A stretch of DNA of 64,000 bases from a virus. The stretch covers positions 64,001 to 128,000 of the IMG/VR virus record IMGVR_UViG_3300040856_003054, one strand, 5' to 3'. This document shows, piece after piece, positions 2,207 through 35,725 of this stretch (within the stretch, counting starts at the first letter, position 1; every line of letters starts with the position of its first letter). The position numbers and the translations under genes were made by a program. Under the pieces are notes generated by a model. The model saw nothing but the letters and a program-made list of their open reading frames with translations. It searched no databases and was not told the origin of the DNA.

Positions 2207-3066
2207 GATACAATCCAGCAGATTGGGACACCTATTCTTCAAAGCAAAGAAAAGAATGGTATTATAAACCATATGAAGAACAACGAGAGATTATAAACAA
2301 ATCATATCTCTCACTGATTACTGACGAAACTGGTAATCTTGATACTATAAAAATCCTTGAACTCATTATGGATTTACAAGACCGAGTAGAAGACCTTGAA
2401 ATAGAATGTGTGAGGAAGGATTATTATTGATGACTAAACGCAACTTTACGCAAGAACTCTATTATTCCTATTATGAGGATATGGAGGATGGTAGAACAAC
2501 TGAAACGATTGATTATGCTGCTTTGATTGGTATTATCGCAGAGTTGTGTGATAGAATAGAGCAACTTGAAAAAGACAACAACCTCTTAAAATCCTACGCA
2601 TGGGAACAATGACGAAACTATCACTCAAATGGAAACAAATCTTTGATGAAATCTCAACAGCAGATGAACATGTTGTTGGAAAAATCAATTACTATAACCT
2701 TGCTAGTATCTTGGAAGATTTGTATGTAGAAAATGCTGAACTCAAAGAACGAGTAGAAGCACTTGAAAAAGATAAGAACCAATGGTATCATCCAGAGAGT
2801 AGTGTAGCAATAAACAAAACTTACACTGATGGTTTGCTATGACTGAAGAAGACAAGTATGCTCTCAAAGAGTTTCTGCGTGGTGCTGGTGCATTTCTTCT
2901 TGCCTCTGCTGTCTTTCTTGCTTACTTTGCATCTGGTGATAAACCAATCAATGAAGCATCATTTGAAGTGGTTGATAAGTATGATAATCGTTGTAATGTA
3001 ATACGATATACTCCTAATAATTCTGCACGATATGTTTATTTCTTGGATTGTTCATCTAAATACTAA
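2203..3066 (+). CDS. run of four small overlapping hypothetical genes; the last (2839..3066) has an N-terminal TM helix
   Basis: Abutting or ATGA-overlapping ORFs ending at 2430, 2612, 2842 and 3066. Confidence 0.7.
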
Positions 3067-3158
3067 TGCCTTAACTGACCGCAATCTGTAAGGTGGGAGG
3101 AGAGAAATCTCCTCCTTTGTAATATAAATACTAATGCGGTTAGTTTAAGAGTAGAACT
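3057..3158 (+). ncRNA. endonuclease-leader cassette 1: late promoter, putative antisense sRNA, terminator, late promoter
   Basis: TAAATA 3057; cttaactgaccgca 3070-3083 complementary to tgcggttagtttaag 3135-3149; terminator ggaggaga-gaaa-tctcctcc-ttt; TATAAATA 3123. Confidence 0.6.
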
Positions 3159-3854
3159 ATGGTAAATCCATATAGATTTTATACCTATGCTTATTTGCGT
3201 GAGGATGGAACTCCCTATTACATAGGCAAAGGTAAAGAAAATAGAGCATATAAGAAAGTTAAGGGTGAAGTTGGAAAACCAACTGACAAATCAAGAATAA
3301 TTTTTCTCAAACAAAATCTAACTGAAGAAGAAGCATTTAGACATGAAATCTACATGATTGCTGTGTTTGGGAGAATTGATTTGGGAACTGGCATTCTTCG
3401 CAATAAAACTGATGGTGGTGAAGGTTCTACTGGATTAAAAATGTCCGATGAAAGTAAACAAAAGATAAGTAAAATTCATAAAGGTAAAACTCTTTCTGAA
3501 AAACATAAACAAATACTTGAAAAACATAGAGTTAAAAAACATTCCAAACAAACTATAGAAAAACTAAAAAAATCAAAAATAGGAAATAAATGGAATGTTG
3601 GAAGAAAACTTTCAGAAGAACATAAAGAAAAAATAAGAAAATGGAACTTGAATAAAATTGTTAGTGAAGAAACTAAAATAAAAATAAGTCAGTCAAAAAA
3701 AGGAAAACCTCAAAGTGAAAATCAAAAAGAAGCAATTAAAATGTTATGTCAAAAAGTAAGAGGAACAAAATGGTGGAATGATGGGCAAATCAACAAAAGA
3801 AGTGTAGAATGTCCTGGTGATGGTTGGAATTTGGGTAGAGTTAGGTTGTCATAA
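3159..3854 (+). CDS. GIY-YIG-family free-standing homing endonuclease with NUMOD3-like repeats
   Basis: YTYAYLREDGTPYYIGKG..R, E..I...GR, N.TDGGEG; basic SEE.K.KIS repeats. Confidence 0.85.
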   Translation: MVNPYRFYTYAYLREDGTPYYIGKGKENRAYKKVKGEVGKPTDKSRIIFLKQNLTEEEAFRHEIYMIAVFGRIDLGTGILRNKTDGGEGSTGLKMSDESKQKISKIHKGKTLSEKHKQILEKHRVKKHSKQTIEKLKKSKIGNKWNVGRKLSEEHKEKIRKWNLNKIVSEETKIKISQSKKGKPQSENQKEAIKMLCQKVRGTKWWNDGQINKRSVECPGDGWNLGRVRLS

Positions 3855-3912
3855 GGACACTTTACAAACTGGCACGGGGGCACTTGAAAACAGGTGCCTT
3901 TTGTTGTATAAT
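3854..3912 (+). promoter_or_regulatory. palindrome-associated early promoter
   Basis: GACA-N10-TGGCAC, TTGAAA, TATAAT 3907; near-identical to 5744..5802. Confidence 0.8.
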
Positions 3913-3934
3913 GACTTTATGAAACAAAAATCTT

Positions 3935-4528
3935 ATGACTGATAATCTCCCAGTTCCTGATGATTTGCCTTATTTAAATCTATCTCAAAGTGAATTGGAT
4001 GAATTGAGAAAATCAAAGAAAGAATTAACGGAATATGGTAAACAGAAGTTGAGAGAACTTATCTACAAAGAGGATATGCGAAAAATGGAAGATGCCGCAA
4101 AAGACCTTGTTCATAAAAATCTTACACACGAAGAGATGACCACAGGAGAACTTATGGACACTGAAAAGTTCCAAGAAGAACTTTCTGAACAGAAAGTATT
4201 TGATGCCGATAAGTTTGCGGAGGAAAATAGTATGGTAAGAAATCATCGTATCCTTGACCGATATAACATGTTCTACAATACTGAATGTTCTGGTCTCACT
4301 TGGGGTACACATATCACACCAGAGTTTCAACAGGCAATGGCATTAGAGTGTATGCTTGATGCGTTGAGGTATGAGAACTTTAACCATGAGTTTGATGTTG
4401 TTTCTACTGCTGACATCAATGCACTGATTGATGGATTGTATCAACAAGGTAAAGATTATCTGGAACGAGTGAAGACACTTCAACAACCGTCACAAGAGAG
4501 CACCAAAACTGATTTGGATGCTCTATAA
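3935..4528 (+). CDS. hypothetical phage protein
   Basis: 197-aa ORF after promoter; its C-terminus is encoded by the next promoter element. Confidence 0.75.
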   Translation: MTDNLPVPDDLPYLNLSQSELDELRKSKKELTEYGKQKLRELIYKEDMRKMEDAAKDLVHKNLTHEEMTTGELMDTEKFQEELSEQKVFDADKFAEENSMVRNHRILDRYNMFYNTECSGLTWGTHITPEFQQAMALECMLDALRYENFNHEFDVVSTADINALIDGLYQQGKDYLERVKTLQQPSQESTKTDLDAL

Positions 4529-4552
4529 TAGTATTATACACAATCAACCACA

Positions 4553-4810
4553 ATGATTTCTCCTTACAATGTAGTTCCTGGAACTGATATTGTTCATAGC
4601 ATCACTGATTGTTATGAACTCTGTGATGAAGCAGAAGGATGCACTCACACTGTAAAACTTAATGCGGATAATGGTGGTGTTTACTTGGAATCAATAGGAA
4701 AGCAACACGATAGTGAGCACAGAGGTATCACTGAATATATGACTATCTCAAACAAAGAACTTGCTATAGTAGTCGCAAAAAGGATTTTGGAATTGTACAA
4801 CGCAGTATAA
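4553..4810 (+). CDS. hypothetical phage protein
   Basis: 85-aa ORF after promoter element 4472..4529. Confidence 0.7.
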   Translation: MISPYNVVPGTDIVHSITDCYELCDEAEGCTHTVKLNADNGGVYLESIGKQHDSEHRGITEYMTISNKELAIVVAKRILELYNAV

Positions 4811-4922
4811 ATAAAAATGTCTGTTTGGACTGCAATCTCTACGGACAAGATTAGGTGCTCTTTGGGGCACCTTTTCTATTATAAAGTTTTATAAATAATA
4901 ATGCAGTCCAAATAGAATAGAA
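4806..4922 (+). ncRNA. endonuclease-leader cassette 2
   Basis: TATAAATA 4806; stem tgtctgt/acggaca; tctgtttggactgca 4820-4834 complementary to tgcagtccaaataga 4902-4916; terminator aggtgctc-tttg-gggcacct-ttt; TATAAATA 4890. Confidence 0.65.
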
Positions 4923-5744
4923 ATGACTAATCATAGTCCTAGAATTTATGTGTATAAAATCACATTTGAAGAAGTTCCTTATTATTACTATGGAGTCCAT
5001 AAGGAAAATAAGTTTGATGAATACTATATGGGTTCTCCTTATACTCATAAATGGGTTTGGGATTTTTATACACCTAAAAAACAAATACTTCAACTTTTTG
5101 AGTTTAGTGATGAAGGTTGGTCAGAAGCAAACGAAATAGAACAAAGATTGATTAGACCTGTATTCAATACAGATAAATGGTGTCTCAACGAAAATTGTGG
5201 TAGAGTAGTTTCTCTTAATATCTTAAGGGAAAATGGTAAAAAAGTTAGTGAAAAATATTCAAGTATAAATGGTAAAAAGAATGGAAAAAAATCTTATGAA
5301 CTTGGATTAGGAATTCACGGAAGAACCAAGGAGCAAAGAACTGAAGATTGTGGTAAAGGTGGGAAAATAATGGGAGAAAAACATAAAAAAGATGGAACTG
5401 GAATTTTTGCAATTACTTCAGAAGAAAGAACTGAAATCGGTAAAAGAATGGGAAAAATAAATTATGAACTTGGTATTGGTGTTCACGGAAGAACCAAAGA
5501 AAAAATGACCGAAGATGGGAAAAAGGGAGGTAAAATCACAGCAGAAAATCATAAAAGAAATAAAACAGGAATTTTTGGAATAGATGACGAACAAAAAAGA
5601 AAAAATAGTATAAAAGGTGGTAGAAGGACATCCTCTCAAAAATGGATGTGCCTTGAAACTGGTTATGTTAGTAATGCTGGTGGACTTTCTCATTATCAAA
5701 AGAAAAGAAATATAGACACATCTAAAAGAGTTAGAATATCATAA
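4923..5744 (+). CDS. Seg-like GIY-YIG homing endonuclease with internal GIHG/GIFG..GKKGG repeats
   Basis: IYVYKIT..YYYYG.H...Y.GS, E..LI, LNEN; tandem basic repeats in the C-terminal half. Confidence 0.8.
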   Translation: MTNHSPRIYVYKITFEEVPYYYYGVHKENKFDEYYMGSPYTHKWVWDFYTPKKQILQLFEFSDEGWSEANEIEQRLIRPVFNTDKWCLNENCGRVVSLNILRENGKKVSEKYSSINGKKNGKKSYELGLGIHGRTKEQRTEDCGKGGKIMGEKHKKDGTGIFAITSEERTEIGKRMGKINYELGIGVHGRTKEKMTEDGKKGGKITAENHKRNKTGIFGIDDEQKRKNSIKGGRRTSSQKWMCLETGYVSNAGGLSHYQKKRNIDTSKRVRIS

Positions 5745-5802
5745 GGACACTTCTCAAACTGGAACAAGGGCACTTGAACTCAGGTGCCTTTTCTTGTATA
5801 AT
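5744..5802 (+). promoter_or_regulatory. palindrome-associated early promoter
   Basis: GACA-N10-TGGAAC, TTGAAC, TATAAT 5797. Confidence 0.8.
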
Positions 5803-5823
5803 GACTTCATACGCAACAAACTG

Positions 5824-6644
5824 ATGAAGTGTAAAACTTGTAAACACTGGAATGGAAACTCACTAGGTATTGGAACTTGTAGTGGTCTTATTCCACAATT
5901 CAAGATTATTCCACTACCCCCTGTGATTGATAAGAAAGGAAACCCACAGAAGAAGAGCAAATTACTTCAAGTGCGTTCTGGAGTCAGTGGTGTGAATAAT
6001 CCTATGACTCCTGCTGATTTTTATTGTAAAAACTGGAGCAACAAATGAAAATCGAATTCAAAGGACACTCACAAACTGACCGAGAAGTAGAACTCTCTCA
6101 ACAAGAATTACATACTCTTTTTGAGATTATGAGAGAAGAGTTCAAAGAACACATCACCTATGCTAGGTTCCGTAATTGTTATTCTCCAACTGCAACTGAA
6201 AAGTCTATCATAGATTTTTGCAATTCTCATAATGTTGACTGTGAATATGATCGTGATAGGGTAGCATTCTTTACTGCCATCCTCAATAACCTCAAGAATC
6301 CTTATCAATGAACATTACATTTAAGCAGCATATTCTCTTGTTATCAGGGCTTACAGTGTTATATGATAGTGCTGAAAAAGTTGGTAACTCTGAAATGCAA
6401 CACGAAATTCTAGAACTTTCTGAGATTATTCAAGAGTATGCTGAAAGGAGACAAAGAGCAGATGAACGAAGAAAAGAATCCTGATGAGATTGTCGTCAAG
6501 GACATTGATATGATTCACTTTGAGATGATGGATGATGGATTTCTCTGGTGCGGAATTTATCATAAGAATGGTCAAGTTGACCACTTTAATATCACATCAA
6601 AGAAGAATAAACTCTCTACTTTATGGATGCCTGATTGTGGGTAA
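5824..6644 (+). CDS. small hypothetical genes (first has a CxxC..C..C putative Zn motif)
   Basis: ORFs ending at 6048, 6311 and 6644; CKTCKHW...C...FYC. Confidence 0.65.
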
Positions 6645-6704
6645 TAAATACTCTTACGATTAAGAAAAGATATAATGTCTCTTGCTCACATCCCTTGGGT
6701 AGTT

Positions 6705-6718
6705 TATAAATATAAATA
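6705..6718 (+). promoter_or_regulatory. overlapping T4-type late promoters
   Basis: TATAAATA at 6705 and 6711, upstream of the ATG at 6736. Confidence 0.75.
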
Positions 6719-6735
6719 TAAAAAAATATGATCGT

Positions 6736-8517
6736 ATGGGATTAAACATAGGAATTACCAATGATTACTTATTGAATACCCCTAATGTTGCATCGGCAGT
6801 AGAAAAGTATGTTTTATGGGCAAAAGCAAGGCAGGGAGGTTCTCCTGGTCTTAAACCATCATTAGATTTAGACTTTGCAAGAAATAAGAGTCTTATCGAT
6901 AATGTTACTGGGCAGCAGTTGGTGGATTTCACCCGCGCTAGTAGTGGCACGTATGTCGGCAGCGATGGGCTGATTAAGACGGCGGTGACGAATTTGTTGG
7001 TGCGGAGTGAGGAGTTTGACAGTAATTGGGCAATTTTTGGCCTGAGTGTTACGGCAAATCAAGAGACAGCCCCAAGTGGGCTGCTAGCTGCTGATCTTAT
7101 TTCTATTGCTGGTTCCGGCCAAGGAATTTGGCAATTTATCACATGCACCCCTGGATTACAGTACACAGCGTCTGTTTATGTAAAACTCGGTACGCTTTCG
7201 GCTGCAGACTATAAAATCGCCGTGCGTGACGATACTGCCGGAGTGTTTATAGCAGCAGACATAACACCCACTCAAACACCGTCATCGACCGGCTGGACGC
7301 GAATTTCTTATACAGTGACAGCCCCTGCTGGGTGTACGACGCTTCGCTTTTACCCTTTCCGAAATACGACCAATGTTACGGGAACAATCTACCTCTGGGG
7401 CGCCCAACTAGAGCAGTCGTCTACTGTGGGTGAATACGTCCCCACCACCAGCACGATTAACAGTGCTCCACGGTTTGATCACGATCCCACCACGGGCGAG
7501 AGCTTGGGGCTGTTGGTGGAGGAAAGTAGGACGAATTTGTTGCTGCGGAGTGAGGAGTTTGATGATGCTTACTGGACAAAAACTCTTGTCACAATTGCCG
7601 CAAACGATGACACCGCTCCAAACGGGCAGATTTCCGCAGAAAAGATTACGCCGACCGTAGACAATGGTGGACACTTAGTACGCAGAGATGTTTCTGGCTT
7701 AACAGCAAATGCGGTTTACACGCTGTCTTTCTACGCAAAATCAGCGGGCTACTCAAGAGCCGGGCTGATTATAGGCACGACGGATCTTTCAACTCGGGCC
7801 ACGGCTGAGTTCAATCTTAATGCCGCGTCAGTAACTGCTCAATCAGGCCAATTAGCGACTTCGGTGGAAAGCGTTGGAGGCGGTTGGGTAAAGATTTCGC
7901 TGTCTGCTCAGAACATAAATACTACTACCTACAGATGCGAAATTAGGGTTTTGGGCTTAGGTGGCGTGACTGACTCTTATACCGGAGACGGCACATCTGG
8001 CATCTACCTCTGGGGCGCCCAACTAGAAGCCGGCGCCTTCCCCACCAGCTACATCCCCACCGAAGATGCCACGGTGACCCGCAGTGCTGACGTGGCCAGC
8101 GACACCACCAGAGGCGGCAACATCCGCAGCCTGTTCACGCAGTTCCGCAGCCCTGCATCAGGCACCAGGCCGGTGGTTTCGTTGGACGACAACACCGCCA
8201 ACGAGCGCATCGAGATCCTGACCAGCGGCACTGATCCGAAGCTGCTGGTAACGGCCGGCGGCAGCGCTGTGGCTGATCTGGATGCAGGCACCGTTGTGGC
8301 CAATGTGGCTGCCCGTGCTGCGGCTCGCTTCAACACCGACAACTACGCCATCAGTATCAACGGCGGCACGTCGCAGCTCGATACCTCCGGCACGCTGCCC
8401 ACCGTGAACCGCATCAGGATCGGCAGCAATCAAGCTGACAACTACCTGAACGGCACCATCGCACGGATCACCGGCTGGGACGTGGTGCTGCCCAACCTGC
8501 CACCGATTACCCAGTAG
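6736..8517 (+). CDS. virion fibre/decoration-like protein with duplicated carbohydrate-binding (CBM/lectin-like) domains
   Basis: LDLDF..FTRASSGTY..DG, PRFDHDP..G..GLLVEESRTNLL, two WGAQLE..Y.PT repeats, C-terminal LamG-like region; late promoter; high GC. Confidence 0.7.
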   Translation: MGLNIGITNDYLLNTPNVASAVEKYVLWAKARQGGSPGLKPSLDLDFARNKSLIDNVTGQQLVDFTRASSGTYVGSDGLIKTAVTNLLVRSEEFDSNWAIFGLSVTANQETAPSGLLAADLISIAGSGQGIWQFITCTPGLQYTASVYVKLGTLSAADYKIAVRDDTAGVFIAADITPTQTPSSTGWTRISYTVTAPAGCTTLRFYPFRNTTNVTGTIYLWGAQLEQSSTVGEYVPTTSTINSAPRFDHDPTTGESLGLLVEESRTNLLLRSEEFDDAYWTKTLVTIAANDDTAPNGQISAEKITPTVDNGGHLVRRDVSGLTANAVYTLSFYAKSAGYSRAGLIIGTTDLSTRATAEFNLNAASVTAQSGQLATSVESVGGGWVKISLSAQNINTTTYRCEIRVLGLGGVTDSYTGDGTSGIYLWGAQLEAGAFPTSYIPTEDATVTRSADVASDTTRGGNIRSLFTQFRSPASGTRPVVSLDDNTANERIEILTSGTDPKLLVTAGGSAVADLDAGTVVANVAARAAARFNTDNYAISINGGTSQLDTSGTLPTVNRIRIGSNQADNYLNGTIARITGWDVVLPNLPPITQ

Positions 8518-8532
8518 TCGGCAACACTAATC

Positions 8533-8682
8533 ATGACTGAAGAACTCCTACCCATCGTTGCTGCAGAAATCGGGAATGGCATTGCTTGTGACCGACCAGA
8601 CAAAGAAACTGCCAGACGAGTTTTAGCCCATGTAGAAACGTGGCTGGCTGCTCAAACCACTACCCCTACCTCTCATGACTGA
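8533..8682 (+). CDS. 49-aa hypothetical protein (not in ORF track)
   Basis: MTEELLPIVAAEIGNG...; same 5' end (catgactgaagaact) as the gene at 8675. Confidence 0.45.
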   Translation: MTEELLPIVAAEIGNGIACDRPDKETARRVLAHVETWLAAQTTTPTSHD

Positions 8683-8983
8683 AGAACTGCTCACACCCCC
8701 CACCCCCACGATGTTCCGCTTCCCAAATGCTGCTGTTGGCATGGCTGCGCTTGATGATGCTGGGCTACTTGATGACGACTTGAATCCCATCACCGCTAGT
8801 CATAACCACGCCCTAGATGTAATCGGCACCATCTCCCGTGGTGGTGAATGGGACGATGAAGGTAATGTCATCACTTCGCCTGAGGTGCTGGAGGGCTTTC
8901 ATTTGAACTACCAAGGACCGCTGCCGGATGGGTGGGACGCTTATGCGGTGTGGCCGGAGCAGCCGGTGAGGGCGTGGGCGTGA
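8675..8983 (+). CDS. small companion protein of the fibre-like gene
   Basis: ALDVIGTI...GEWD..G...P..L.GFH.N...P..P.R.W; GC-rich like the upstream gene. Confidence 0.7.
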   Translation: MTEELLTPPTPTMFRFPNAAVGMAALDDAGLLDDDLNPITASHNHALDVIGTISRGGEWDDEGNVITSPEVLEGFHLNYQGPLPDGWDAYAVWPEQPVRAWA

Positions 8984-9035
8984 AACTGTCACACACAATA
9001 CACCATAAACCACAAAGACCTGCTATAATATCATT

Positions 9036-9493
9036 ATGAAATACCTGAACTCTAAATGGGAAATGATTGTGTGGGGATTTGAACTATTCCAGAATGCAAT
9101 CTATTTTCGGTTGACATTAGAGGATAACATTGATAGATTATCCTTCTTTGAAGAACTCTCTGCTGGGTATATTGAAATGACTGATGAGTATCTAATGTCT
9201 CAACCCGACTTTGACCCATATAATCTATCGGGTAGAGATTCTTATTATTCTTATGTGATGAGTCAAAAGTGATGGACTTTCCAGTGTTCTTAAATAAATG
9301 GATAATCTCCAATAAGTTTCTTAAGTATACTCCATTCTGGTGGTGGTACAGGTTAATATCTCATCAAGGTTTTCGCTTTGATGATTATTATGTGTGGAAG
9401 GAGTTTTGGATGTCCTTAAATCAAGGATATATGGATATGAACTATAAATGGGAGTTTGAACAATATTGGAGTGTAAAACCTAAACATAAATAA
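9036..9493 (+). CDS. two small aromatic-rich hypothetical genes (9036..9272, 9269..9493)
   Basis: Overlapping ORFs after promoter with TATAAT at 9024. Confidence 0.65.
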
Positions 9494-9590
9494 TGATGTC
9501 TGTTTGGACGGCAATCTCTACAGACAAAGATTAGGTGCTTTCGGGCACCTTTTCTATTATAAATAATAATGCCGTCCAAATAGAATAAAG
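9486..9590 (+). ncRNA. endonuclease-leader cassette 3
   Basis: ATAAATA 9486; stem tgtctgt/acagaca; tctgtttggacggca 9499-9513 complementary to tgccgtccaaataga 9570-9584; terminator aggtgct-ttcg-ggcacct-ttt; TATAAATA 9558. Confidence 0.65.
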
Positions 9591-10226
9591 ATGAACTATC
9601 TAAAGATTTATTGTAATCTTATCAGGAAAGCAGAGAATAGAACTCCACCTGAAGGTTATACGGAAAAACACCACATATTTCCTAAAAGTATTTTTGGAGA
9701 TAATGATAGAGTTGTAATATTAAGTGGAAGAGAGCATTATATTGCTCACGCATTATTAGAAAAAGCATTTATAAAAAGGTATGGTGGAAATCACAAAAAA
9801 ACTAAAAAGATGTCTTTTGCTTTTTGGTGTATGAATAACCAAAAATCAAAAAATACTTATTTAAATTCTTATTTTTATGAAAGTTCCCGAATGAGAGTTA
9901 GTGGGGAAAATAATATAGCAAAAGACCCAATTATTCGTAAAAAAATAAGTGAGAAAAAACGAGGAAAAAATCATCATCAATATGGAAAACCACATTCCCA
10001 GGAAACTAAAAATAAGATAAGTAAAAAGAGGAGTGGAAAAAATAATCATATGTCTAAACATTGGAAAATTACATTTTCCAATGGAAATGAAATTGTATTG
10101 TGTGGATTATATAAATGGTCCAGGGAAAATGGATATTGTGCTACTCATATTATTGGAGTTTGTCGTGGAAAAAGAAACTATCATAAAGATATTGTGTCAG
10201 TTGAAGAACTGGCACAAATTTCTTGA
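9591..10226 (+). CDS. HNH (MobE-like) homing endonuclease with NUMOD3 and C-terminal HTH-like domain
   Basis: MNY.K.Y..LI..A, EKHHIFPKS..G, L..REHYIAH.LL; YGKPHSQETK.KIS. Confidence 0.85.
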   Translation: MNYLKIYCNLIRKAENRTPPEGYTEKHHIFPKSIFGDNDRVVILSGREHYIAHALLEKAFIKRYGGNHKKTKKMSFAFWCMNNQKSKNTYLNSYFYESSRMRVSGENNIAKDPIIRKKISEKKRGKNHHQYGKPHSQETKNKISKKRSGKNNHMSKHWKITFSNGNEIVLCGLYKWSRENGYCATHIIGVCRGKRNYHKDIVSVEELAQIS

Positions 10227-10275
10227 ATAAAACACTTAAAATATGTTATTATGAAGAACACTAAAAAAGAAAAAA

Positions 10276-13200
10276 ATGAAAAATTTTCTGCTCACATTAT
10301 GGTATTTTCCATCACATTTATGGTATAATTATAAATCTTGGAGATATGAGCAAAAATGTATAAAATACTTTGGAGCGAAACCTGAAAAGATTCTTCTACC
10401 AAAAGAACAATTCGATGCTCTTGTAGAACGATTAAATCAACCATCAGACCCTAAAGTAGTTGAAAGATTAAAAGAGATTATGTCTAAAAAGGCTCCGTGG
10501 GAATAATGAAAGAATACTTTGAAAAACTAAAAAAGAGAGCAGGAGTTATTATTCTGTTCGGCCAAATGTGTATTATCATCTATCAACTTGGCACATTAGA
10601 ATCAAAGAAGGTTACTATCTGTCAACCTGATACTTACCAGCAACGGATTATTTGTGTAGAGCAGTGAACGATAAATCTAAAATCTTCTACAATGTCTGGT
10701 GCAATGCGTACCAAAGACGAACCATATATAAAGGAACCGACAGAGAACACAGAGAGCACGAAACTGTGCGAATGTGTCTTGATATGAAAGATGTAAAGTT
10801 CTACCAATTTGATAGTGAGAGACCCAGATATGTTTAGTAAGCCTCTTCTTGGAACCAATACAAAGAAAACTAAACTTTCTTGGATTGAGTATATCTGGAA
10901 CTCGTGTATTATTCAGGGGTGGTATAATTGCTGGTATTCCTTTAAGAACTGGGCCGATTTGATGGGCGATAATTACCAAGAATACGCTTTATTAGTATCT
11001 GATGACCCATTGGAGCAATGTATCTTATATTTCTGGGATAGTTTGGAAGATGAGATTTATCCAAAACACTTTTTGGATAGTTTACTTCAAATGGTAGACG
11101 ATATTGAAACTGGCAAAGAAAAAGTATATCCACTTGATGAAGATTTCTTTGATAGAATGAAAGAACTTACTGATGGTATTGCTGTAAACCTTAACGAAAA
11201 GTTGGAGGAAGAGTGAAGTGGGACTTTATGATGAGATTCGTTCTTCTTATGATTTGGGAGAACAATTCACAAATGTAGAAATGCAAACCAAAGGTCTTGC
11301 GTGTGCAATGACTCGTTATTGGATTTCTCCTGATGGTTATTTGTATGAATTGACTTATAGAGAAACTCACGACTTTGCAGAAATTGGTGAAGATGATGAA
11401 AGGTACGATCCTAAAAAGTTATTTTTGAATTTTGAGTGGATTCCAACAGGAAAGAATGGTAAAGTTGAACCGTGTTATGTGACTGATTATGTTGAGGTTT
11501 ATCCTGCAACTTGGAATCAATCTTGGGAATCTTGGCCCCGACTAAAATTACACTTCAAACTGGGAAAACTACAAGATTATGAAAACATCACAGGACAACG
11601 TTGAACTATTCCCTTATGAGTCGTTCGGTGTAAGATTAGAACACATAAACGAAAAAAGAATCTGTTGGTTCAAGGACGATTATGAGTTGCAAAAATACCT
11701 AGAAAGGTATAAACTGGATAAGAGAACTATTAAACTTGATTATCGTGATGGAGAACCCACTAAACCCAGTCAAAAACGTAAGAGAAGTGTGGAGCAAAAA
11801 CCTGAACCAAAGAGTAAAGGAAGTTCAGGTACAAGTAAAGGACGAACCACCCGCATGGATCCCACTCGCAACACTACTGGCACTACAAAACGCAAGAAAA
11901 AATGACGGAGCAAACTAAACTCATTCTTGCTCTAATGCAGATTGATAATCTTACAAATCTTTTGGAAGGTAATCAATATCAAAAATTTTTATACAGCAAA
12001 TTAATTTCTACGCGAATTGAACTACAGAGGCAATTGAGTCATTATGGAAAGACAGTGGTATGATGATAAAGCATTTTATGTGGAGGGAAAGAAGTATGGA
12101 TTATGGGATTCATATGATAAAGATGGCAAATGTATTATTACCTCACTAACCGAAGAAGAGTGTGTTAAAGCTACGCGATTTATGTTGAAACTCAAACAAG
12201 AGAATAAACTAAATGAAGTAGGGAACACCTATTCTGGCACCGTAGATGGAAAACTTTAGAGCAGGAAACAATGTAAAATTCATTGGTTGTTCAAAGGAAC
12301 AGATTGCTTGGGGTAATAATGATGACCCCACAGGTATTTTGATTGTGGGTGACAAGTATTATGTGGAAAAGGTAGAAGTTCACTCACAACACACAAAGTT
12401 GACATTGCGAGGAATATGCGGTAGATTCAATAGTGTATGTTTTGAAAAAGTATGACAGTAAGAACTTTCGTTGATAAGAATGGAAATGAGTGGAGTTGGG
12501 AAGAAACTCCAGAAGTCCTTGAAGCACTGAAGAATCTCCATGAAATTAAGAATGACACAAAAACAACAGATGTGGGCTAATATCTTCCAGTGTGCTATTC
12601 AAAGGTCTGATATTTACTTCAAAGAAAAAGATCTAGATCGACACGCAAGAGAACACACAACAGTCACATTAGCACTTCAAAAAGGTGAACAATTTTGGAA
12701 AGAACTACTGTAGAATATCCATACCACGTTCTTGATGAAACAACTCCTTGGAATTCGTGGTTGGAATATTCTGAAATATGTCATCAACTTAATGTTCCTG
12801 GACAACCATCTCTGGGACGTTTTATGTCATTTAGACGTTATTTGAAATCTGCTGGACTATTATAATGATTAAAAGATTTGTCAAATGGTTTATCACACCA
12901 TCAAAAAAACCTATCGTTGAAGATATTGATTTGTATGCTAAAATTGTAGAACTGGAGAATCGTATTGCTAATCTAGAAGAAGAAAACATTGAGACAAATA
13001 ATGTGCTCTATGAACTTGGAAACTCTATTGATGCTGTTGATGTCCGTATAGATATTCTATCACTTGAGACATTTACTAAAAATGTATGAAAATCTATCAC
13101 AGTATGAACGAGCACTCGCAAGGTTTGGTGATAAAGTGGGCCTCATTGCAGGACTTGAAATCGCGGATAAGATCTCACCAGAAGATGCTTATCAACAAAT

Positions 13201-13406
13201 CAAGGAACTTTACAAAGAACTTAAGAAACTCCGTAAGAAAGAAAGAAGAATCTGGGGAAATACTGGAATCGGGACTACGAAAGTGCGCTAACTGTGGAGA
13301 GGTAAAACCACTTGACATCGAGCACTTTCAGGTGGTAAAATATTTTCATCAGGGATTTTCATTCTACTGCAACGAGTGTAACAAACCCAAACCAAGAGAT
13401 GATTGA
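10276..13406 (+). CDS. cluster of small hypothetical cyanophage genes (incl. 10830..11216, 11218..11604, 11579..11905, 12044..12259, 12246..12455, 12865..13089, 13082..13291)
   Basis: Contiguous overlapping + strand ORFs with phage-like composition; no function recognisable. Confidence 0.65.
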
Positions 13407-13408
13407 TT

Positions 13409-14071
13409 ATGACAGACTTTGACTACAAAAAGTATTCACTTGAGAATCTTGAGAAGTGGATGAGTGATGCTTTGATTTCGGCAGAAGCAACACCAAAAGA
13501 AATCTATGATATTATTCACAAAGTCGTAGAAGAAGAGTATTATTATTTCAAACATCAAACTGGTCGTTGTTATGAACTTCTAGCACTTCTGAAAGGTAAT
13601 GGTAAAGAACATCTAACTTGTGATAAAGATGATAAGTCTCCCGAGTGTCAAAATGCCTGGAACGATTTCTGGGAAGAGTATTATTATCCTGAAGAGCATC
13701 AGAAACACACTGAAGAAGTAAAAGATAACGGTATGCGTCCTTGGGGGCATAGTGATTTGGAATACATGATTGCCAATCCAACTTTGACCGAAGATCGTGT
13801 TAGTAACTTTCCTGGAGAGCAATACACTGAAGAAGAACTGAATGCGATGTGTGATTCTGCTAAAAAGGAAGATAAAGTAGTAAAGTGGCAACTACCTGTT
13901 CAAGTTGATGGATTGAGTGGTGAGTGTTTTGTGGAGTTCCCTGATGATTTGTTAGAAGCAGCAAATCTTAAAGAAAACGACCTTGTGAGCTGGATTGACC
14001 GTGGCGACGGTAGTTTTGAATTAAGAAAAGTAACTAAACCTATTGGAATGGAGGAAAGTAAATGTCACTAA
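13409..14071 (+). CDS. protein with C-terminal AbrB/MazE/SpoVT-like swapped-hairpin domain
   Basis: C-terminal G.CFVEFPDDLLEAANLKEND.V.W...GDGSF.L.K pattern. Confidence 0.6.
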   Translation: MTDFDYKKYSLENLEKWMSDALISAEATPKEIYDIIHKVVEEEYYYFKHQTGRCYELLALLKGNGKEHLTCDKDDKSPECQNAWNDFWEEYYYPEEHQKHTEEVKDNGMRPWGHSDLEYMIANPTLTEDRVSNFPGEQYTEEELNAMCDSAKKEDKVVKWQLPVQVDGLSGECFVEFPDDLLEAANLKENDLVSWIDRGDGSFELRKVTKPIGMEESKCH

Positions 14072-14546: not shown

Positions 14547-14575
14547 AGAGGGTCAGCAATGACCCTCTTTTTTTC
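14547..14575 (+). terminator. rho-independent terminator
   Basis: agagggtca-gcaa-tgaccctct followed by a T run; CTAAATA late promoter follows. Confidence 0.8.
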
Positions 14576-24367: not shown

Positions 24368-24371
24368 TATT

Positions 24372-24450
24372 GTGGGCAGCAACATTGCGGGGGCGTAAGG
24401 TTGTGTAAGTCCCACTTTTATGGTATAAATAATAATACCCCCGCAAAAGA
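24372..24450 (+). ncRNA. endonuclease-leader cassette 4 (variant architecture)
   Basis: gtggg/cccac-tttt stem enclosing ttgcggggg 24385-24393, complementary to cccccgcaa 24438-24446; TATAAATA 24424. Confidence 0.5.
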
Positions 24451-25227
24451 ATGATGAACTATCTAAAAGTTTATTGTAACCTCATCAGGAAAGCAGAGAA
24501 TAGAACTCCACCTGAAGGTTATACGGAAAAACATCATATATTTCCAAAGAGCATTTATGGAAATAACAATAGAGTTGTAATTTTCACTGCAAGAGAGCAC
24601 TATATTGCTCACGCATTATTGGAAAAAGTTTGTATCCAAAGGTATGGATTGAAAGATAAAAGAACTATAAAAATGATTTATGCCCATAGTGGAATGAAAG
24701 GTAATAATGGTTATATCAATTCCACTTTATATGAAGGTGCAAGAAAAAGAAGAAGTGATAATATGAAAGGAAAACCTTTGTATATTCCAACTGAAAAGCA
24801 TAAAGAAGAAATCAGACAAAGAAGATTGGGAACCAAAGCATCCGAAGAAACAAAAAGAAAAATGAGCGAATCGCATAGAGGTAAAAAATGTCCTCCAAGA
24901 AGTGAAGAATGGAAAAAAAGGGTGGGTGAGAGAATGAAAAAATATGTTGGAGAAAAAAATCCTTTTTATGGAAAAAAACATACAGAAGAAACTAAAAGAA
25001 AGATAAGTGATTCGAAAAAAGGTAAAAAGTATGATAAGAAAATAATAAAAAAATCAAAATACTTATGCAAAGTTAAAAATTCCAAAGGAGAAGTATTTTC
25101 TACCACAAATTTAAAAAATTTTTGTAGAGAAAATAATCTAAACCCCAGTTGCATGTATAGAATAATATCTGGCAAACAAATTCAACATAAAGGATGGGAA
25201 ATTGTTGAAAGAATTAAAATAGAATGA
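24451..25227 (+). CDS. HNH (MobE-like) homing endonuclease with NUMOD3 repeats
   Basis: N-terminus nearly identical to 9591..10226; SEETKRKMSE, NPFYGKKHTEETKRKIS; C-terminal HTH-like. Confidence 0.85.
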   Translation: MMNYLKVYCNLIRKAENRTPPEGYTEKHHIFPKSIYGNNNRVVIFTAREHYIAHALLEKVCIQRYGLKDKRTIKMIYAHSGMKGNNGYINSTLYEGARKRRSDNMKGKPLYIPTEKHKEEIRQRRLGTKASEETKRKMSESHRGKKCPPRSEEWKKRVGERMKKYVGEKNPFYGKKHTEETKRKISDSKKGKKYDKKIIKKSKYLCKVKNSKGEVFSTTNLKNFCRENNLNPSCMYRIISGKQIQHKGWEIVERIKIE

Positions 25228-26136: not shown

Positions 26137-26343
26137 ATGACTGACACTGTTAATGTTCTTCCTCACATCCGAGAACTGAAAGATACTTGGCGTCGTCAAG
26201 ATTTCAGTTTCACTAAATCGCAGAAAGAAGAATACGATCTCTTGATTGCTGCTCGTCGTGAAAGGGTAAAACAACATTATAAAGAAGGAAAAGTTTGCAC
26301 AATCAGCAAATCTGCAATGGACAAACTTAAAGAAGATAACTAA
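26137..26343 (+). CDS. hypothetical cyanophage protein
   Basis: ORF after promoter element 25919..25976 and an acidic small ORF. Confidence 0.65.
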   Translation: MTDTVNVLPHIRELKDTWRRQDFSFTKSQKEEYDLLIAARRERVKQHYKEGKVCTISKSAMDKLKEDN

Positions 26344-26447
26344 ATAATGATGCCTGAAGTTGACTGACATCTCTACAGGCAGAGGAGGAGCAGAAATGCT
26401 CCTTTTCTTGTATAAATACTTAAGTCAGTCAACTTAAGAGCAGAACT
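26341..26447 (+). ncRNA. endonuclease-leader cassette 5
   Basis: TAAATA 26341; stem tgcctg/caggca; aagttgactgac 26357-26368 perfectly complementary to gtcagtcaactt 26424-26435; terminator aggagca-gaaa-tgctcct-ttt; TATAAATA 26411. Confidence 0.65.
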
Positions 26448-27140
26448 ATGGTCAAAAATCCATATAGATTTTATACCTATGCCTATTTGCGTGAGGATAG
26501 AACTCCTTATTACATAGGTAAGGGTAGTGGAAGAAGAATATATGATAAAAATGGAAGACCTTGTGGTAAACCGAAAGATAAATCCAGAATTATTTTCTTA
26601 AAGCAAAATCTAACCGAAGAAGAAGCATTCAAACACGAAATCTATATGATTTCTGTGTTTGGTAGAAAAGATTTGGGGACAGGTATTCTTCATAATAAAA
26701 CCGATGGAGGTGATGGAGTTTCTGGGGTAATAGTTAGTGAAGAAACAAGAGAAAAATTAAGAAAATCATCTACAAAATATAATAATGAAGGTCAAAGAAA
26801 ATTGGCAAACAAAAAAACTCATAAAAATTATTATCTAAAGAATAAAGAAAAAATATCACGATACTATAAAGAAAAATATAAGAAAATGAGTTCTGATTTG
26901 GAATGGATGGAGAATCAAAGATTAAAACAAAGAATACCTAAAGAAAATCAAAAAACAAATAGATTGTGGAAAACTTGGAAAATAACTTTCAGTGATGGTA
27001 GAATATTGGAAATGACTGGATTATATAATTGGTGTAAAAATAATGGATATAGTGATGGGTTAGTTTATCAGGTAGCAAAAGGCACCAGAAATAAACATAA
27101 AGATATTGTGTCAGTAGAACAACTGACCACTTACTCTTGA
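26448..27140 (+). CDS. GIY-YIG-family homing endonuclease
   Basis: N-terminus near-identical to 3159..3854; C-terminal domain like that of 9591..10226. Confidence 0.85.
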   Translation: MVKNPYRFYTYAYLREDRTPYYIGKGSGRRIYDKNGRPCGKPKDKSRIIFLKQNLTEEEAFKHEIYMISVFGRKDLGTGILHNKTDGGDGVSGVIVSEETREKLRKSSTKYNNEGQRKLANKKTHKNYYLKNKEKISRYYKEKYKKMSSDLEWMENQRLKQRIPKENQKTNRLWKTWKITFSDGRILEMTGLYNWCKNNGYSDGLVYQVAKGTRNKHKDIVSVEQLTTYS

Positions 27141-29021: not shown

Positions 29022-32000
29022 ATGAATCCTTCCGAAATCCGTAAAGTAGCACGACTTCTTGAATATGAAGATGATTGTCGTGCAGCACGTCAGGAGTTTA
29101 TGGAACATGGTGTAAGATTTTATGATAAATTTGGAACTGGTCACATTGTTGATGGTGTGAAGAAATATACTGAGAAGTATTGAGTGTGACAATCCGAAAG
29201 GTGTCACCCAAAATGAGCACAGCATCCTAAATCGTGTATTGTATCTGTATTGAAGCAAATCACTCCCATGCCTTCCTTCATTCAACACACAACCAATCCA
29301 ACCTTTGTTGAAGTTGGTGTAGAGTTCTTTCTTCCCACTGATTCTACTTCCTGGATTCCGAATGGTTTTGACATGGTAGAGTTTTGTGTGGATGCAGATG
29401 AACTCGAAGATGATCGTTATGCTACACTTGAAGAGGTTGCAGAACAATTCTGCAAGAAAATCGGTGTAGTGTTTTCTCAAGTAATCGAATCGGATTTGTG
29501 GTGATTATGGCAACTTGTGGAATCTTAGTGCTCCTTGCATACTCTCTGGGTGCATTGCAAATTATAGTTTTGCATCGACTGCTCAGGGACAATCCCTGAA
29601 GTGTCCACCAGACGCACCAGAATCGTCTCTAGTGCGTCTATAATGACTTTGTTGAATCAAACCACGCAACTCATGGTTTTCCACTATACGACCAACTGGA
29701 AAGAGAATAAGGTGTGCCAGATGTTCATTCAGGAGGTTACACCAGAGTTTCAAGAAGGTGACAACAAATACGTTGCTATTGCTCTCAATCCCGAAACAAA
29801 CAAGAGCATGGTGATGTCGAAACCCCGCAGTCATTATGATACACTGCAATGGGTTCGTAAGTGGTGTGGTTCCTTTTGTATTCTTCCTGCCTGATTCTTT
29901 TCACTCAACTCACCATCATTTACTTATGACTACCAAAACTTGGGTTGTTAAACTTGAGATTGCGATTGATGAGAATAGTCATCCTCGCAAGTTTATCCCT
30001 GATGCTATTGCTGAATGTCTGAATCTTGAAGAAGGTGAAGACATTATTGATTACAACTTTGTGTGTCTTGATTGATGAAAAACTATCGAGTTCGTGTTGA
30101 AACTAACGATGGATGTGTCACTATCTGGCATGAGAAATCGAAAGCAAAAAGCGCAGACAAATTGATTCTCAATCGTGTCTACAATCAACTCTGTGGACTA
30201 AACATTAAAGAAATCTCTGTTAATCCTTCTGTTTGAATCATGGCAACTTGGAGAGCAAAGTGTTGGTTAGGTTCTTCTTCTGGTTATCAAGAACTGGAAG
30301 TGCAATCTAACACAACCTACGGAGCAAAAGAGCAGTTTAAGAGAATCTATGGTGCAGAGCAAATCATCAACCTTCGGGAAGTTCGTGGAGAATCTACATC
30401 AGGTTCTGGAATTGGTGATGTTGGAGGAACTGTGGGTTTGATTGGTTTGGTTGCACTTTGTTGGGCATTTGTATCATTTACACCGTGGATTCTCATGGGT
30501 TTGGGTGGTGCTTTTGGAACTTGGGTTGGTGAACAAGTAACAGGACAAAGCATCGAAGAGTATAATGAACGTGATGATGGTTTGGGTAACAAACGAGCAT
30601 CAGTTGTTGTTGCGCTTGCTCTCATTCTAGGTGGAATTGGTTTTGTGAAAGGTGATGAAATCAAAAAAGGTTTTGATGCTGATAGTGTTCCTGCTGAGGT
30701 GAAGAAAACTAAATGATTATCACACCAGATAAACTAAAACTAATCAATGCACTTTCTGCAGAGTATGAGTATCTGTGCCATGATGACTTTGACCCAGATG
30801 TTGATACAACACCTGAAGAATACAATAAGATGCTGAGAAAAATGTCCTATGAAGAATTGATCGAAGAGGCAAGTATTGGTGAAGAATATACCCTTGAAGA
30901 TTACCTAGGAACTTGGTTATGAACTACACTGACATCACAACACTTGAGAATTGCCCCGAGTGTGGTGCTAACTGGGTTGATAAACGCATCCCTGAAGAAC
31001 TCTGGGATCGCTATTCTCCTCCCTATTTCTATAGTCGTGTGATAGGAGTTGAGTTGCTCCATGAAGATCGAATCAATCATTGGTTGTGCCCTGATTGTAA
31101 CCACAAGTTTCCCCGATGATTTACTCTAACCTCTCAAAGATTCGTCCTAAACTAAGGACAACTGGACGTGTTTCAGGCAATTTCGGAAAATTGAAAGTTG
31201 TCGCTGGTTCATCACTCAATGAGATCGGTGGTGATGGTAACATAGGTGCCACACAAGATGAGTACCTGAATCGTCTTTATTATGCTTTTGATAACACCAC
31301 AGACACTAAACTTCAGCAGTTTCTCTATCAAGAAATCAAAAAGATTCACGTTCAAAGAGGAACCTGGTGACAGTTGTAGAAGTGTCACAATAAATGAGCA
31401 CAGAGACCAAAATCATGTATTATTAAAGAGTCAAAGCAATTCAAGCACATGACTACTGCTTTCGCTGACTTCGTTGCACAGCAAGATGCAAAGAACACAA
31501 TCCAACTTAACATTGTTAAGTATTGTCTGATGCTGTGTGATGCTCTTGGACATGATGCTCCTGATGGGTATCACTACTCTCTAGATTCTTCTGGTCGCAA
31601 GTATCACAAAGTATTCATGCACATTGGTGATCGTAGGGATTCTATTCATGCTTTTATTGATAAGCAAACTGGTTCTGTGTATAAACCAGCAAGTGTAAAA
31701 GCGCCTGCAAAAGGTCAGCGTTACAATGTGCTGAGTATTGAATCTCGTGAGCAAATGTTTGAGCGTTGCGATTGGTCAGGATCTTATCTTTACGCACGTT
31801 GATACAAACTAAAGGGTGTGACAATCAAATCTCTGGCACACTCGATGGTTTTCCTCCCCAAAATCCTGTATATTAAAAGAGTCAAAAACAACAACGACAT
31901 GACCACTGCAACCGCTTCCCGCACTTTTGTTCATCAGTCTGTGAATAGCAGCGCAATCTCTCAACTCTCTGTGATCTCTGGTGAGATTGAAGGAACCTAT

Positions 32001-35000: not shown

Positions 35001-35630
35001 TTTTGTTCAGTATGCTTGCAAAGTTCTAAAGATTCAGATTCATCGACCAGTCAAAGGTTTGTTGTGTGTAGAAGATCAGTATGCTCAAGTTCTTGAGTAT
35101 TTGTATCTGAATTATAGCAATCCTTCTGGACGTAATGATGCACAAGCAATTCTAAATGTGTTTTCTATTCAATGATCAAATCTCTTCTGAATCTGATACC
35201 AGTCAAACACGGATCTTATACTCAAGAAGGTAATCAGATTCGTCGAACATTCTCATTTGGTTATAGTTACATTATCACCACATGTAAGACATCAAAAGAA
35301 GCACAACGTATCGTAAATCAATTCAATTTGTTATGACTAAAACAAGTTTCTATCAAGGTCAATCGTATTCTAAGTTTGATGCCTATTATGAAGAGGAAGA
35401 TTGTGAGCACGATGATTATATGAGTGCAGAAGATTACGAACGTCGTGAATACTATCGGACTCATGATTGAAACTGATTTCTTTATTCTGAATGGTGAACA
35501 GTATCAAGAGTATTATACTGAAGCAACAAAGGTAGGTGTTACTCTTGATTACTATTTGATGGAGTTTACGGATACTGAAGGACCAGATGTTGTATATGAT
35601 GGAGAGAATTGGGTTGAGATTAGTGAATAA
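29022..35630 (+). CDS. dense array of very small early hypothetical genes in promoter-delimited units
   Basis: Many 45-160 aa + strand ORFs, mostly acidic, separated by palindrome-promoter elements. Confidence 0.65.
30240..30716 (+). CDS. membrane protein
   Basis: Hydrophobic Gly-rich TM segments after a small soluble domain. Confidence 0.7.
   Translation: MATWRAKCWLGSSSGYQELEVQSNTTYGAKEQFKRIYGAEQIINLREVRGESTSGSGIGDVGGTVGLIGLVALCWAFVSFTPWILMGLGGAFGTWVGEQVTGQSIEEYNERDDGLGNKRASVVVALALILGGIGFVKGDEIKKGFDADSVPAEVKKTK
31367..31435 (+). promoter_or_regulatory. palindrome promoter, AAATGAGCACAG subtype
   Basis: GTGACA-N10-TGTCAC, AAATGAGCACAG, TG-TATTAT, AAAGAGTCAAA. Confidence 0.75.
31449..31802 (+). 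CDS. conserved phage hypothetical protein
   Basis: G.KY.K........S.HAF.DK.TG.VYKPAS.KAPAKG.RYN...W.G.YLY pattern. Confidence 0.8.
   Translation: MTTAFADFVAQQDAKNTIQLNIVKYCLMLCDALGHDAPDGYHYSLDSSGRKYHKVFMHIGDRRDSIHAFIDKQTGSVYKPASVKAPAKGQRYNVLSIESREQMFERCDWSGSYLYAR
34141..34297. ncRNA. candidate structured non-coding RNA (three consecutive hairpins)
   Basis: 18-bp stem 34141-34158/34192-34209 with two G-U pairs; tgcga/tcgca hairpin; stem 34252-34264/34285-34297; no ORF. Confidence 0.45.
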
Positions 35631-35725
35631 ATAGTGATGCTTAAATGAGTCGCATCTTTAAGTAGAGAGGGGGCAGAAATGCTCCTTTTCTTGTATAAAT
35701 AATACTGCGACTCTTTAAGACAAGA
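35627..35725 (+). ncRNA. endonuclease-leader cassette 6
   Basis: ATAAATA 35627; stem tgcttaaa/tttaagta; cttaaatgagtcgca 35640-35654 complementary to tgcgactctttaag 35706-35719; terminator ggggca-gaaa-tgctcc-tttt; TATAAATA 35694. Confidence 0.6.

Follow-up and report, generated by a model that had tools for sequence, protein, structure and literature searches.

In a 64,000-nucleotide stretch of the IMG/VR virus record IMGVR_UViG_3300040856_003054 (bases 64001-128000 of a 136,140-base record with an estimated completeness of 64; hereinafter, the window), six genes for homing endonucleases or related proteins are each preceded by a compact cassette in which a segment of the sense strand, the anti-leader, is complementary to the 5' end of the predicted mRNA of the same gene. 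Gene content and TATAAATA motifs fit a T4-like cyanomyovirus, and nucleotide matches of the window among GenBank phages are confined to short stretches of the Synechococcus phages S-SRM01 and S-WAM1 (at most 3% of the query, 80.7% identity). The class I cassette, of about 105 bp, consists, in this order, of the motif (A/C)TAAATA (P1), a stem-loop that includes the anti-leader (SL1), an intrinsic terminator, a second element, TATAAATA (P2), a leader complementary to the anti-leader, and the ATG of the homing endonuclease gene. It is likely that this arrangement is a portable cassette of the free-standing homing endonuclease genes of T4-like cyanophages, with the anti-leader pairing with the whole 5' untranslated region (UTR) of 17-25 nt. 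The observation is more general than the preliminary description of the window had stated: comparison of sequences and predicted folds confirms the pairing, which appears to form a leader mask bypassed by a late promoter, in a new, standardized version, and the extra promoter and terminator of this version probably release a small antisense RNA.

The preliminary description had proposed one layout upstream of the genes starting at 3159, 4923, 9591, 26448 and 35726, a variant of it at 24451, and six pairs of complementary segments. Reading of the six sites, all on the plus strand, bore out the layout, and all six pairs are complementary, with −16.8 to −24.8 kcal/mol for these segments alone. 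Cassette 1 (class I, 3056..3158) opens with the P1 sequence CTAAATA (3056-3062), followed by a predicted transcription start (+1) at G3068 and by SL1 (3068-3094) with its anti-leader (3070-3083); downstream are a terminator hairpin (3095-3113) with a T-tract, the P2 element TATAAATA (3123-3130) with a predicted +1 at G3136, and the leader, or 3' arm (3135-3149), which pairs with the anti-leader at −16.8 kcal/mol, with one G-U pair and one bulge. Cassette 2 (class I, 4806..4922) has TATAAATA as P1 (4806-4813), overlapping the stop codon of the open reading frame (ORF) 4553-4810, a predicted +1 at G4819, SL1 at 4819-4846 with the anti-leader at 4820-4834, a terminator at 4853-4872, a degenerate TATAAAG at about 4881, P2 at 4890-4897 and a leader at 4903-4922, the 3' arm of which (4902-4916) pairs at −23.3 kcal/mol with one G-U pair. 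The strongest pairing, −24.8 kcal/mol with one G-U pair, is that of cassette 3 (class I, 9485..9590), where P1 is CATAAATA (9485-9492), the predicted +1 is G9498, SL1 (9498-9525) contains the anti-leader 9499-9513, and the terminator (9533-9550) and P2 (9558-9565) precede the leader (9571-9590) and 3' arm (9570-9584). Cassette 5 (class I, 26340..26447), with CTAAATA as P1 (26340-26346), a predicted +1 at G26352, SL1 at 26352-26380, the anti-leader at 26357-26368, a terminator at about 26381-26408, P2 at 26411-26418 and a leader at 26424-26447, forms a perfect duplex (26357-26368 with 26424-26435, −17.0 kcal/mol). The elements of cassette 6 (class I, 35626..35725) are the P1 sequence AATAAATA (35626-35633), a predicted +1 at G35639, SL1 (35639-35663), the anti-leader (35640-35654), a terminator (about 35664-35691), P2 (35694-35701) and the leader (35707-35725), with a 3' arm (35706-35719) that pairs at −16.8 kcal/mol with one bulge. 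The variant, cassette 4 (class II, 24372..24450), forms one hairpin (GTGGG at 24372-24376 with CCCAC at 24411-24415) that displays the anti-leader (24385-24393) in its apical loop and is followed by a T-tract (24416-24419), the P2 element TATAAATA (24424-24431) and the 3' arm (24438-24446; −17.5 kcal/mol), with no TAAATA upstream.

Paired with the 100 nt upstream, the whole leaders of the six cassettes yield −19.3 to −26.4 kcal/mol (z = −2.8 to −6.4 against 300 shuffled leaders), compared with only −4.5 to −12.3 kcal/mol for 20 other late-promoter-like sites of the same genome that served as controls. A terminator scan independently recovered the hairpins at 3095-3113, 4853-4872 and 9533-9550. 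As a peculiarity of cassette 2, a 10-nt insertion between terminator and P2 (window 4877-4889) places a degenerate extra TATAAA(G/C) just upstream of TATAAATA, a feature also seen in four related loci (L005, L097, L112 and L135).

The same elements recur in front of related genes. Among 160 IMG/VR loci (80 each for relatives of the GIY-YIG and HNH groups), TATAAATA is located within 90 nt upstream of the endonuclease gene in 142; 13 of the 160 loci, with no [TC]ATAAATA within 90 nt or too near the locus edge, were left out. Dereplication and a start-codon rule yielded 118 unique P2-bearing upstream regions, 114 of which contain arms that pair at −15 kcal/mol or lower (106 class I and 8 class II) and four of which have no arms. 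In the eight class II relatives, the anti-leader again occupies the apical loop of a conserved large hairpin without TAAATA upstream. The P2 sequence is TATAAATA in 109 of 121 unique relatives and in all six genes of the window.

Covariation between loop and leader among homologues, which had been suggested as a check, is indeed found. When 112 class I cassettes were aligned with MAFFT without fitting to any structure (alignment A4; L011, L141 and L157, class II-like sequences with an incidental TAAATA, were excluded), 82.1% of the cells of the long-range helix and terminator are paired, compared with 64.6% in shuffled alignments, and 24 of 26 pairs are altered on both sides. Covariation scores 0.452, a level that none of 500 shuffles attains (0.196 for shuffled data), and sliding the partner by 1-3 columns brings the score down to 0.206 or less. 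Likewise, cognate arms form duplexes with a median of −23.75 kcal/mol versus −11.8 kcal/mol for non-cognate ones. Structure was judged by folding each sequence and counting the structure pairs, not by an alignment fold; the MAFFT seeds of the cassettes are structurally inconsistent, and RNAalifold predicted no pairs on alignment A4 owing to register shifts between subfamilies. At the first ten ungapped positions of 71 distinct arm pairs, we counted 663 Watson-Crick pairs, 32 G-U, 2 A-C and 13 other combinations. Collectively, these comparisons indicate that the pairing is under selection, and as an RNA of the plus strand. Both a DNA-level inverted repeat and an RNA of the opposite strand were rejected because they predict equal numbers of A-C and G-U mismatches.

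An RNA that extends from P1 to the ATG is predicted to pair both arms in its minimum-energy fold in 112 of 112 cassettes, with a median advantage of 14.6 kcal/mol over the local fold, and the loop of the resulting long hairpin holds a full terminator-like hairpin, including three nearly invariant T columns. The helix, and with it the 3' arm, begins at the sixth nucleotide after the P2 TATAAATA, the predicted +1, in 110 of the 112, consistent with the earlier proposal that the target starts at about +1 of the late mRNA. The 5' UTR of the endonuclease genes has a median length of 20 nt, and the helix ends 1-6 nt before the AUG according to RNAduplex, or about 9 nt before it in the minimum-energy folds, covering AGAG-like purines. 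Within the last ~12 nt before the ATG (e.g. 9579-9590), the sequence TAGA(A/G)TAGAA is kept across cassette subfamilies and nuclease families without covariation, and may provide a weak context for ribosome binding or mark a crossover point at which cassettes are swapped.

These features suggest a mechanism with a well-characterized counterpart. Sequence, folding and comparison argue that the intrinsic-terminator-like hairpin would stop transcripts arriving from the upstream (early) gene, and the consensus late promoter P2 would start the endonuclease mRNA at the first paired base, so that the late mRNA would be free of the anti-leader. A transcript containing both arms would fold into a helix of 14-17 bp that covers the leader from +1 to a few nucleotides before the AUG; by analogy with I-TevI of T4 and mobE of Aeh1, this helix would block ribosome loading, and the nuclease would, as a result, be made only from P2 transcripts, late in infection. 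For the T4 genes I-TevI, I-TevII, I-TevIII and segB and for Aeh1 mobE, early or middle transcripts are described as masked and late ones as escaping the mask (Edgell, Gibb and Belfort 2010, PMC2988022). Among marine metagenomic loci, hairpins were reported in 15 of 16 endonuclease 5' UTRs, 10 of them containing TATAAATA, with two motifs complementing each other on the stem, and were read as mobE-like masks of the ribosome-binding site (RBS) (Dassa et al. 2009, PMC2677866). Because masking has been shown for I-TevI and mobE and described for marine metagenomic endonucleases, the core of the present finding is already known. A cis mask is very probably operative on read-through RNA from the cassettes described here.

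What sets the cassettes apart is the 5' arm, for which the preliminary description had proposed a promoter and terminator of its own; comparison lends support to a promoter-like element and a predicted terminator there. TAAATA precedes this arm in 108 of 108 SL1-type cassettes and in 64 of 64 unique cassettes retrieved by a pattern scan (see below), in the latter preceded by A in 43 cases and by C in 21. The same preference marks TAAATA sites located 8-45 nt upstream of gene starts in this genome (A 26, C 9, T 3, G 0) versus the remaining sites of the genome (A 19, T 19, G 14, C 7). The motif NATAAATA has been published as a cyanophage late promoter (PMC2984593), and in phage S-B68 CTAAATA itself occupies the position of P2. 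Compared with P2, P1 is less constrained: the first T is present in ~27% of P1 elements, as expected for an unconstrained base, versus 92% of P2, and the second position is A in 69% (A 75, C 29, G 3, T 1) versus 98%, so that P1 looks like the weaker of the two elements. The spacer between P1 and the predicted start is AT-rich, a purine occupies the sixth position downstream of P1 in 105 of 111 cases, and SL1, with a median of 26 nt and −5.7 kcal/mol, starts at the sixth or seventh nucleotide after P1 in 106 of 112. From the predicted +1 to P2, the sequence folds as SL1 plus a terminator hairpin in 111 of 112 cassettes, and the RNA predicted to start at P1 is 42-64 nt long (median 56 nt).

Covariation of the SL1 stem is modest (double changes in three of four pairs; 79.5% paired cells versus 73.7% in shuffled alignments), and the stems are more stable in cognate than in non-cognate combinations (−6.0 versus −2.4 kcal/mol). 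The ATG reported to open this stem is replaced in relatives by ATA, ACA or GAA (alignment A4), and is thus not a start codon; a small ORF beginning at this ATG was considered and rejected on the same grounds. The CA(A)TCT motif, described as conserved, is so within the window but only loosely in the relatives of the same alignment.

In 61 of the 94 cassettes with an upstream ORF, the stop codon of that ORF falls inside P1, in two registers; in the others it is found up to 28 nt upstream. At the empty site of cassette 2, found in 12 related contigs, the stop codon and the next ATG are only a few bases apart. Given these two observations, part of the TAA of P1 could be positional, although, by the layout of the empty site, most of P1 arrives with the cassette. 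In 18 cases there is no upstream ORF, including sites right after tRNA genes, where P1 is kept without any need for a stop codon, indicating that P1 is more than a stop codon. Two duplicate cassettes of the contig (at contig positions 51921 and 67123) are identical from the predicted +1 on and share CTAAATA, differing only in the 5-nt spacer in between, and this is the pattern expected of a promoter. On balance, P1 is probably active as a weaker late promoter that would give rise to a terminated two-hairpin RNA of ~56 nt, a judgement held with somewhat less assurance than that of the portable cassette as a whole. In four estuary metatranscriptome runs, which contain 5-32% of the sampled words of this sequence, the assembled contigs are low-depth fragments on window positions 1-20000 that are silent on starts, ends and strand. 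Contigs from two runs of different studies both stop at position 4805, immediately ahead of the first base of P1 in cassette 2. The coincidence was not used as evidence; the cassette may be polymorphic in the population, present in some members and absent from others, or the assembly may have broken at a repeat.

Once made, the P1 RNA, or the 3' ends of upstream mRNAs stopped at the same terminator, might pair with the late mRNA in trans and thereby damp or shorten nuclease synthesis. Upstream early mRNAs that end at the cassette terminator carry the anti-leader at their 3' end and could pair in trans without P1. Overall, functional trans pairing appears plausible but falls slightly short of an even chance, and the trans-acting small RNA of the preliminary description is, in this respect, partly supported. 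The idea that such an RNA serves as a cofactor of the nuclease finds no support, because near-identical cassettes precede unrelated nuclease families: a single compensated pair separates the arms of cassette 2 from those of cassette 3, and yet the genes behind them (4923 and 9591) are unrelated.

Several points weigh against the scheme of a cis mask combined with a P1 RNA. The AUG and the last 1-9 nt before it are unpaired and no clear Shine-Dalgarno sequence is defined in the leaders, so that masking of the RBS can only be inferred. An efficient terminator would leave few transcripts with both arms, confining the cis mask to a minority of RNAs, and action in cis alone leaves unexplained why P1 is never lost. 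With respect to the trans component, no orphan P1-SL1-terminator units were found in the contig, and in 1.5 Mb of related loci P2 follows 174 of 176 such units. Furthermore, the arms are not orthogonal within the genome, where those of cassettes 2 and 3 are nearly the same and those of two cassettes are identical. Finally, class II cassettes lack P1 and some class II relatives also lack a U-tract; for want of a promoter and, in part, of a U-tract, class II would be confined to action in cis or to a role as the 3' end of upstream mRNAs.

The best-surviving alternative shifts the emphasis to trans action: the P1 product would be primarily a gene-specific antisense RNA, akin to a type I antitoxin, with P1 and P2 firing together late in infection and cis masking being secondary. 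A stable two-hairpin RNA would then accumulate and titrate the nuclease mRNA, producing a threshold or a short pulse of expression. In favour of this possibility, which we regard as tentative, P1, SL1 and the terminator make up a complete predicted transcription unit, P1 being consistently the weaker promoter-like element relative to P2. Within the SL1 loop, 4-7 nt of the anti-leader stay unpaired and face the free 5' end of the mRNA, and cofolding predicts a gain of −11.3 to −14.9 kcal/mol after paying for the opening of SL1, so that pairing in trans is feasible. Against it stand the lack of orphan units in the contig and the related loci, the identical or nearly identical arms in several cassettes of one genome and the promoterless class II, and covariation does not separate cis from trans action.

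The opposite alternative is purely classical control in cis, in which the anti-leader acts solely on terminator read-through and P1 is silent or its product functionless; variants of it hold that P1 could interfere with P2 by occlusion or be kept as a boundary part of the mobile unit. The strongly favoured read-through fold (112 of 112) and the published precedents in T4, Aeh1 and marine metagenomic endonucleases (PMC2988022, PMC2677866) are what this explanation would predict, and it accommodates class II, the missing orphan units, the lack of any sign of selection for orthogonal arms, and the stop codons within P1 together with the empty-site layout. We nevertheless consider it unlikely, given that (A/C)TAAATA is never lost, that the variable positions of P1 copy those of gene-proximal late promoters, that the purine and the foot of SL1 are placed exactly at the predicted start, and that P1 persists behind tRNA genes as well as at sites whose stop codon is as much as 28 nt upstream; in addition, a cis-only mask requires neither a promoter nor an anti-leader displayed in a loop. 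A DNA-level inverted repeat, with the arms serving as operator half-sites for autorepression by the cognate endonuclease or as a recombination or cruciform signal, would be compatible with the arms flanking P2 and with the binding of I-TevI to an operator that overlaps its late promoter (PMC2988022), but is highly improbable in view of the G-U excess noted above, the register of the helix, which is tied to predicted transcript starts, and the near-identical arms of cassettes 2 and 3 before unrelated proteins, on account of which a nuclease-specific operator was rejected.

The cassette is not tied to one type of nuclease, and appears to be common to at least four protein families. To assess the association without regard to the gene, IMG/VR was searched with a 21-letter terminator-P2 pattern. 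Of 81 matches, 8 at locus edges were dropped, leaving 73 evaluable ones; 71 of these have a downstream ORF, of which 68 match the endonucleases of the contig and three are 7-aa remnants with a GIY-YIG-type start. Since this gene-blind search returned only such genes, the cassette is specific to endonuclease genes. Cultured phages that contain it include S-SRM01, S-B68 and B23; relatives of the endonucleases in ACG-2014f and S-N03 have no cassette, and a blastn search of cassette 3 against 50,697 GenBank phage records matched only S-SRM01 (two records of one phage). In S-SRM01 (NC_070963; L299 and L300), GIY-YIG genes linked to the cassette bear the annotation 'translation initiation factor 2', and one HNH gene has its start annotated within the terminator of the cassette, 54 nt before the conserved ATG. 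One IMG/VR contig (L121) carries a chimeric cassette with a 5' half and a leader from different subfamilies and effectively unpaired arms (−6.9 kcal/mol), and looks like a recombinant joined at P2.

That there are six such cassettes in the window, as originally counted, is correct, although the contig as a whole has ten and the assignment of all six downstream genes to homing endonucleases holds by profile matches for five, with none for 4923. The four further class I cassettes are located before endonuclease genes upstream of the window (contig 29299-29397, 51854-51959, 53176-53288 and 60878-60993). The first of these adjoins the 3' end of a tRNA-Leu(taa) gene, and the one at contig 51921 equals cassette 1 of the window from the predicted +1 on but precedes a longer paralogue (298 aa). 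The contig contains 18 + 1 TATAAATA sites, and 10 of the 19 are the P2 of a cassette before an endonuclease-like ORF.

Behind cassettes 1, 5 and 6 are genes, all on the plus strand, for GIY-YIG-type homing endonucleases of 231 aa (3159..3854), 230 aa (26448..27140; a paralogue 52% identical to the product of 3159) and 254 aa (35726..36490), which have phrog_15526 in common. Cassettes 3 and 4 precede plus-strand genes for HNH-type homing endonucleases of 211 aa (9591..10226) and 258 aa (24451..25227), both matching phrog_655; the true start of the latter is possibly the second ATG, at 24454. NUMOD3 is found in the products of 3159, 9591 and 24451, and a PHROG labelled 'homing endonuclease', phrog_314 (3159 and 35726) or phrog_655, in those of 3159, 9591, 24451 and 35726. 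The gene behind cassette 2 (4923..5744, plus strand, 273 aa) is the exception, its product having no family in Pfam (E up to 10), PHROGs or PDB sequences. Its conserved N-terminal domain (MT.QSPRIY.YKITFEEVPYYYYG...) is shared with at least 12 relatives behind the same cassette, and a profile of 13 relatives resembles the GIY-YIG group in the C-terminal module only (hhalign 96.5%, 63 columns). The protein may thus be an uncatalogued nuclease domain fused to a common C-terminal DNA-binding module. An AlphaFold2 model had a mean predicted local distance difference test score (pLDDT) of 47.2, too poor for use.

Searches of open-access full texts brought up no description of an upstream promoter, an internal terminator or a small RNA at these genes, and Rfam 15 gave no match in the window at the gathering score, with only sub-threshold chance matches (E up to 10) in two cassettes. 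What appears to be new here is the invariant upstream P1, with SL1 at its predicted start and a terminator behind it, which together predict a separate RNA of ~56 nt. Homing endonucleases are selfish genes, and low expression is needed for the fitness of the phage that carries them; the solution in T4 is a hairpin that masks the RBS and is bypassed by a late promoter. Cyanophages apparently place a standardized, exchangeable version of this solution before endonuclease genes that number in the hundreds and belong to at least four families, and with its two added parts, promoter and terminator, the mask would become a small RNA in its own right. Conceivably, antisense RNAs of ~56 nt driven by late promoters form a large family in T4-like cyanophages, with a fixed scaffold of 5' stem-loop and terminator hairpin and a freely re-programmable anti-leader of 14-17 nt, the target of which is the homing endonuclease mRNA made 70 bp downstream; if P1 and P2 depended on the same late sigma factor and the RNA were the more stable product, the result would be an incoherent feed-forward loop and a brief, low pulse of nuclease. 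We put this forward as a possibility that falls short of an even chance. Should the RNA exist, it would belong to one of the largest families of phage-encoded regulatory RNAs, provide a natural 'programmable' antisense scaffold and a testable model of mobile genes carrying their own dosage control, and represent an antitoxin-like RNA brake that is encoded by phages and travels with the nuclease gene. Should it not exist, the cassette would be an ordinary, if elaborate, case of a control scheme already known.

In type I toxin-antitoxin systems, such as tisB/istR-1, zor/orz and symE/symR, an antitoxin RNA from a separate, neighbouring promoter pairs with the 5' UTR of the toxin mRNA. The predicted P1 RNA resembles these antitoxins in being a short, terminated and structured RNA, complementary to a leader and encoded beside a potentially harmful gene, that would block ribosomes. 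Unlike them, it would be encoded in tandem on the same strand, with complementarity derived from an inverted repeat, and both promoters would be late phage promoters.

Another class of small mobile modules comprises the promoter(early)-stem-loop (PeSL) cassettes of T4-type phages, reportedly described by Arbiol et al. in 2010. As portrayed by Comeau et al. (2014, PMC4122927), PeSLs are, like the present cassettes, small conserved terminator/promoter modules that recur in plastic regions and seem to be mobile or recombine as a unit; in that account, however, their promoters are early and of the sigma-70 type, they show no specificity for endonuclease genes, and no anti-leader pairing is involved. 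Both promoter-like elements of the endonuclease cassettes are of the late TAAATA type, which distinguishes them from the sigma-70-type early promoter plus stem-loop that defines a PeSL. Separately, a conserved PeSL-like module is found 3' of several endonuclease genes (window 3876-3912 and 5766-5802; contig 54014 and 61638), which combines the motif GGACACTT..AAACTGGCAC with a G+C-rich, T-tract-bearing hairpin and an overlapping sigma-70-like promoter (TTGAAA-17-TATAAT, 11/12 matches); it resembles PeSLs and would restart transcription of the next early gene.

The hairpins of 'fractured genes' in marine metagenomes (Dassa et al. 2009, PMC2677866) are probably the same or a sister element; the word 'terminator' occurs 0 times in that article, and its passages on the hairpins name no upstream promoter and no separate RNA. 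The closest characterized relatives are the masks of T-even phages as presented by Edgell and colleagues (PMC2988022), which share with the cyanophage cassettes an endonuclease gene with TATAAATA immediately upstream, an upstream segment that pairs with the initiation region, a late promoter inside the hairpin, such that late transcripts escape, and terminators and layered negative control around the gene. Relative to those masks as presented there, the cyanophage version differs in that the hairpin loop accommodates a complete intrinsic terminator, the 5' arm is already folded into a stem-loop of its own, a second, invariant late-promoter-like element stands before SL1 at the spacing of a promoter, the helix spans the entire short UTR from +1 but leaves out the AUG, and one conserved, exchangeable cassette apparently serves at least four nuclease families.

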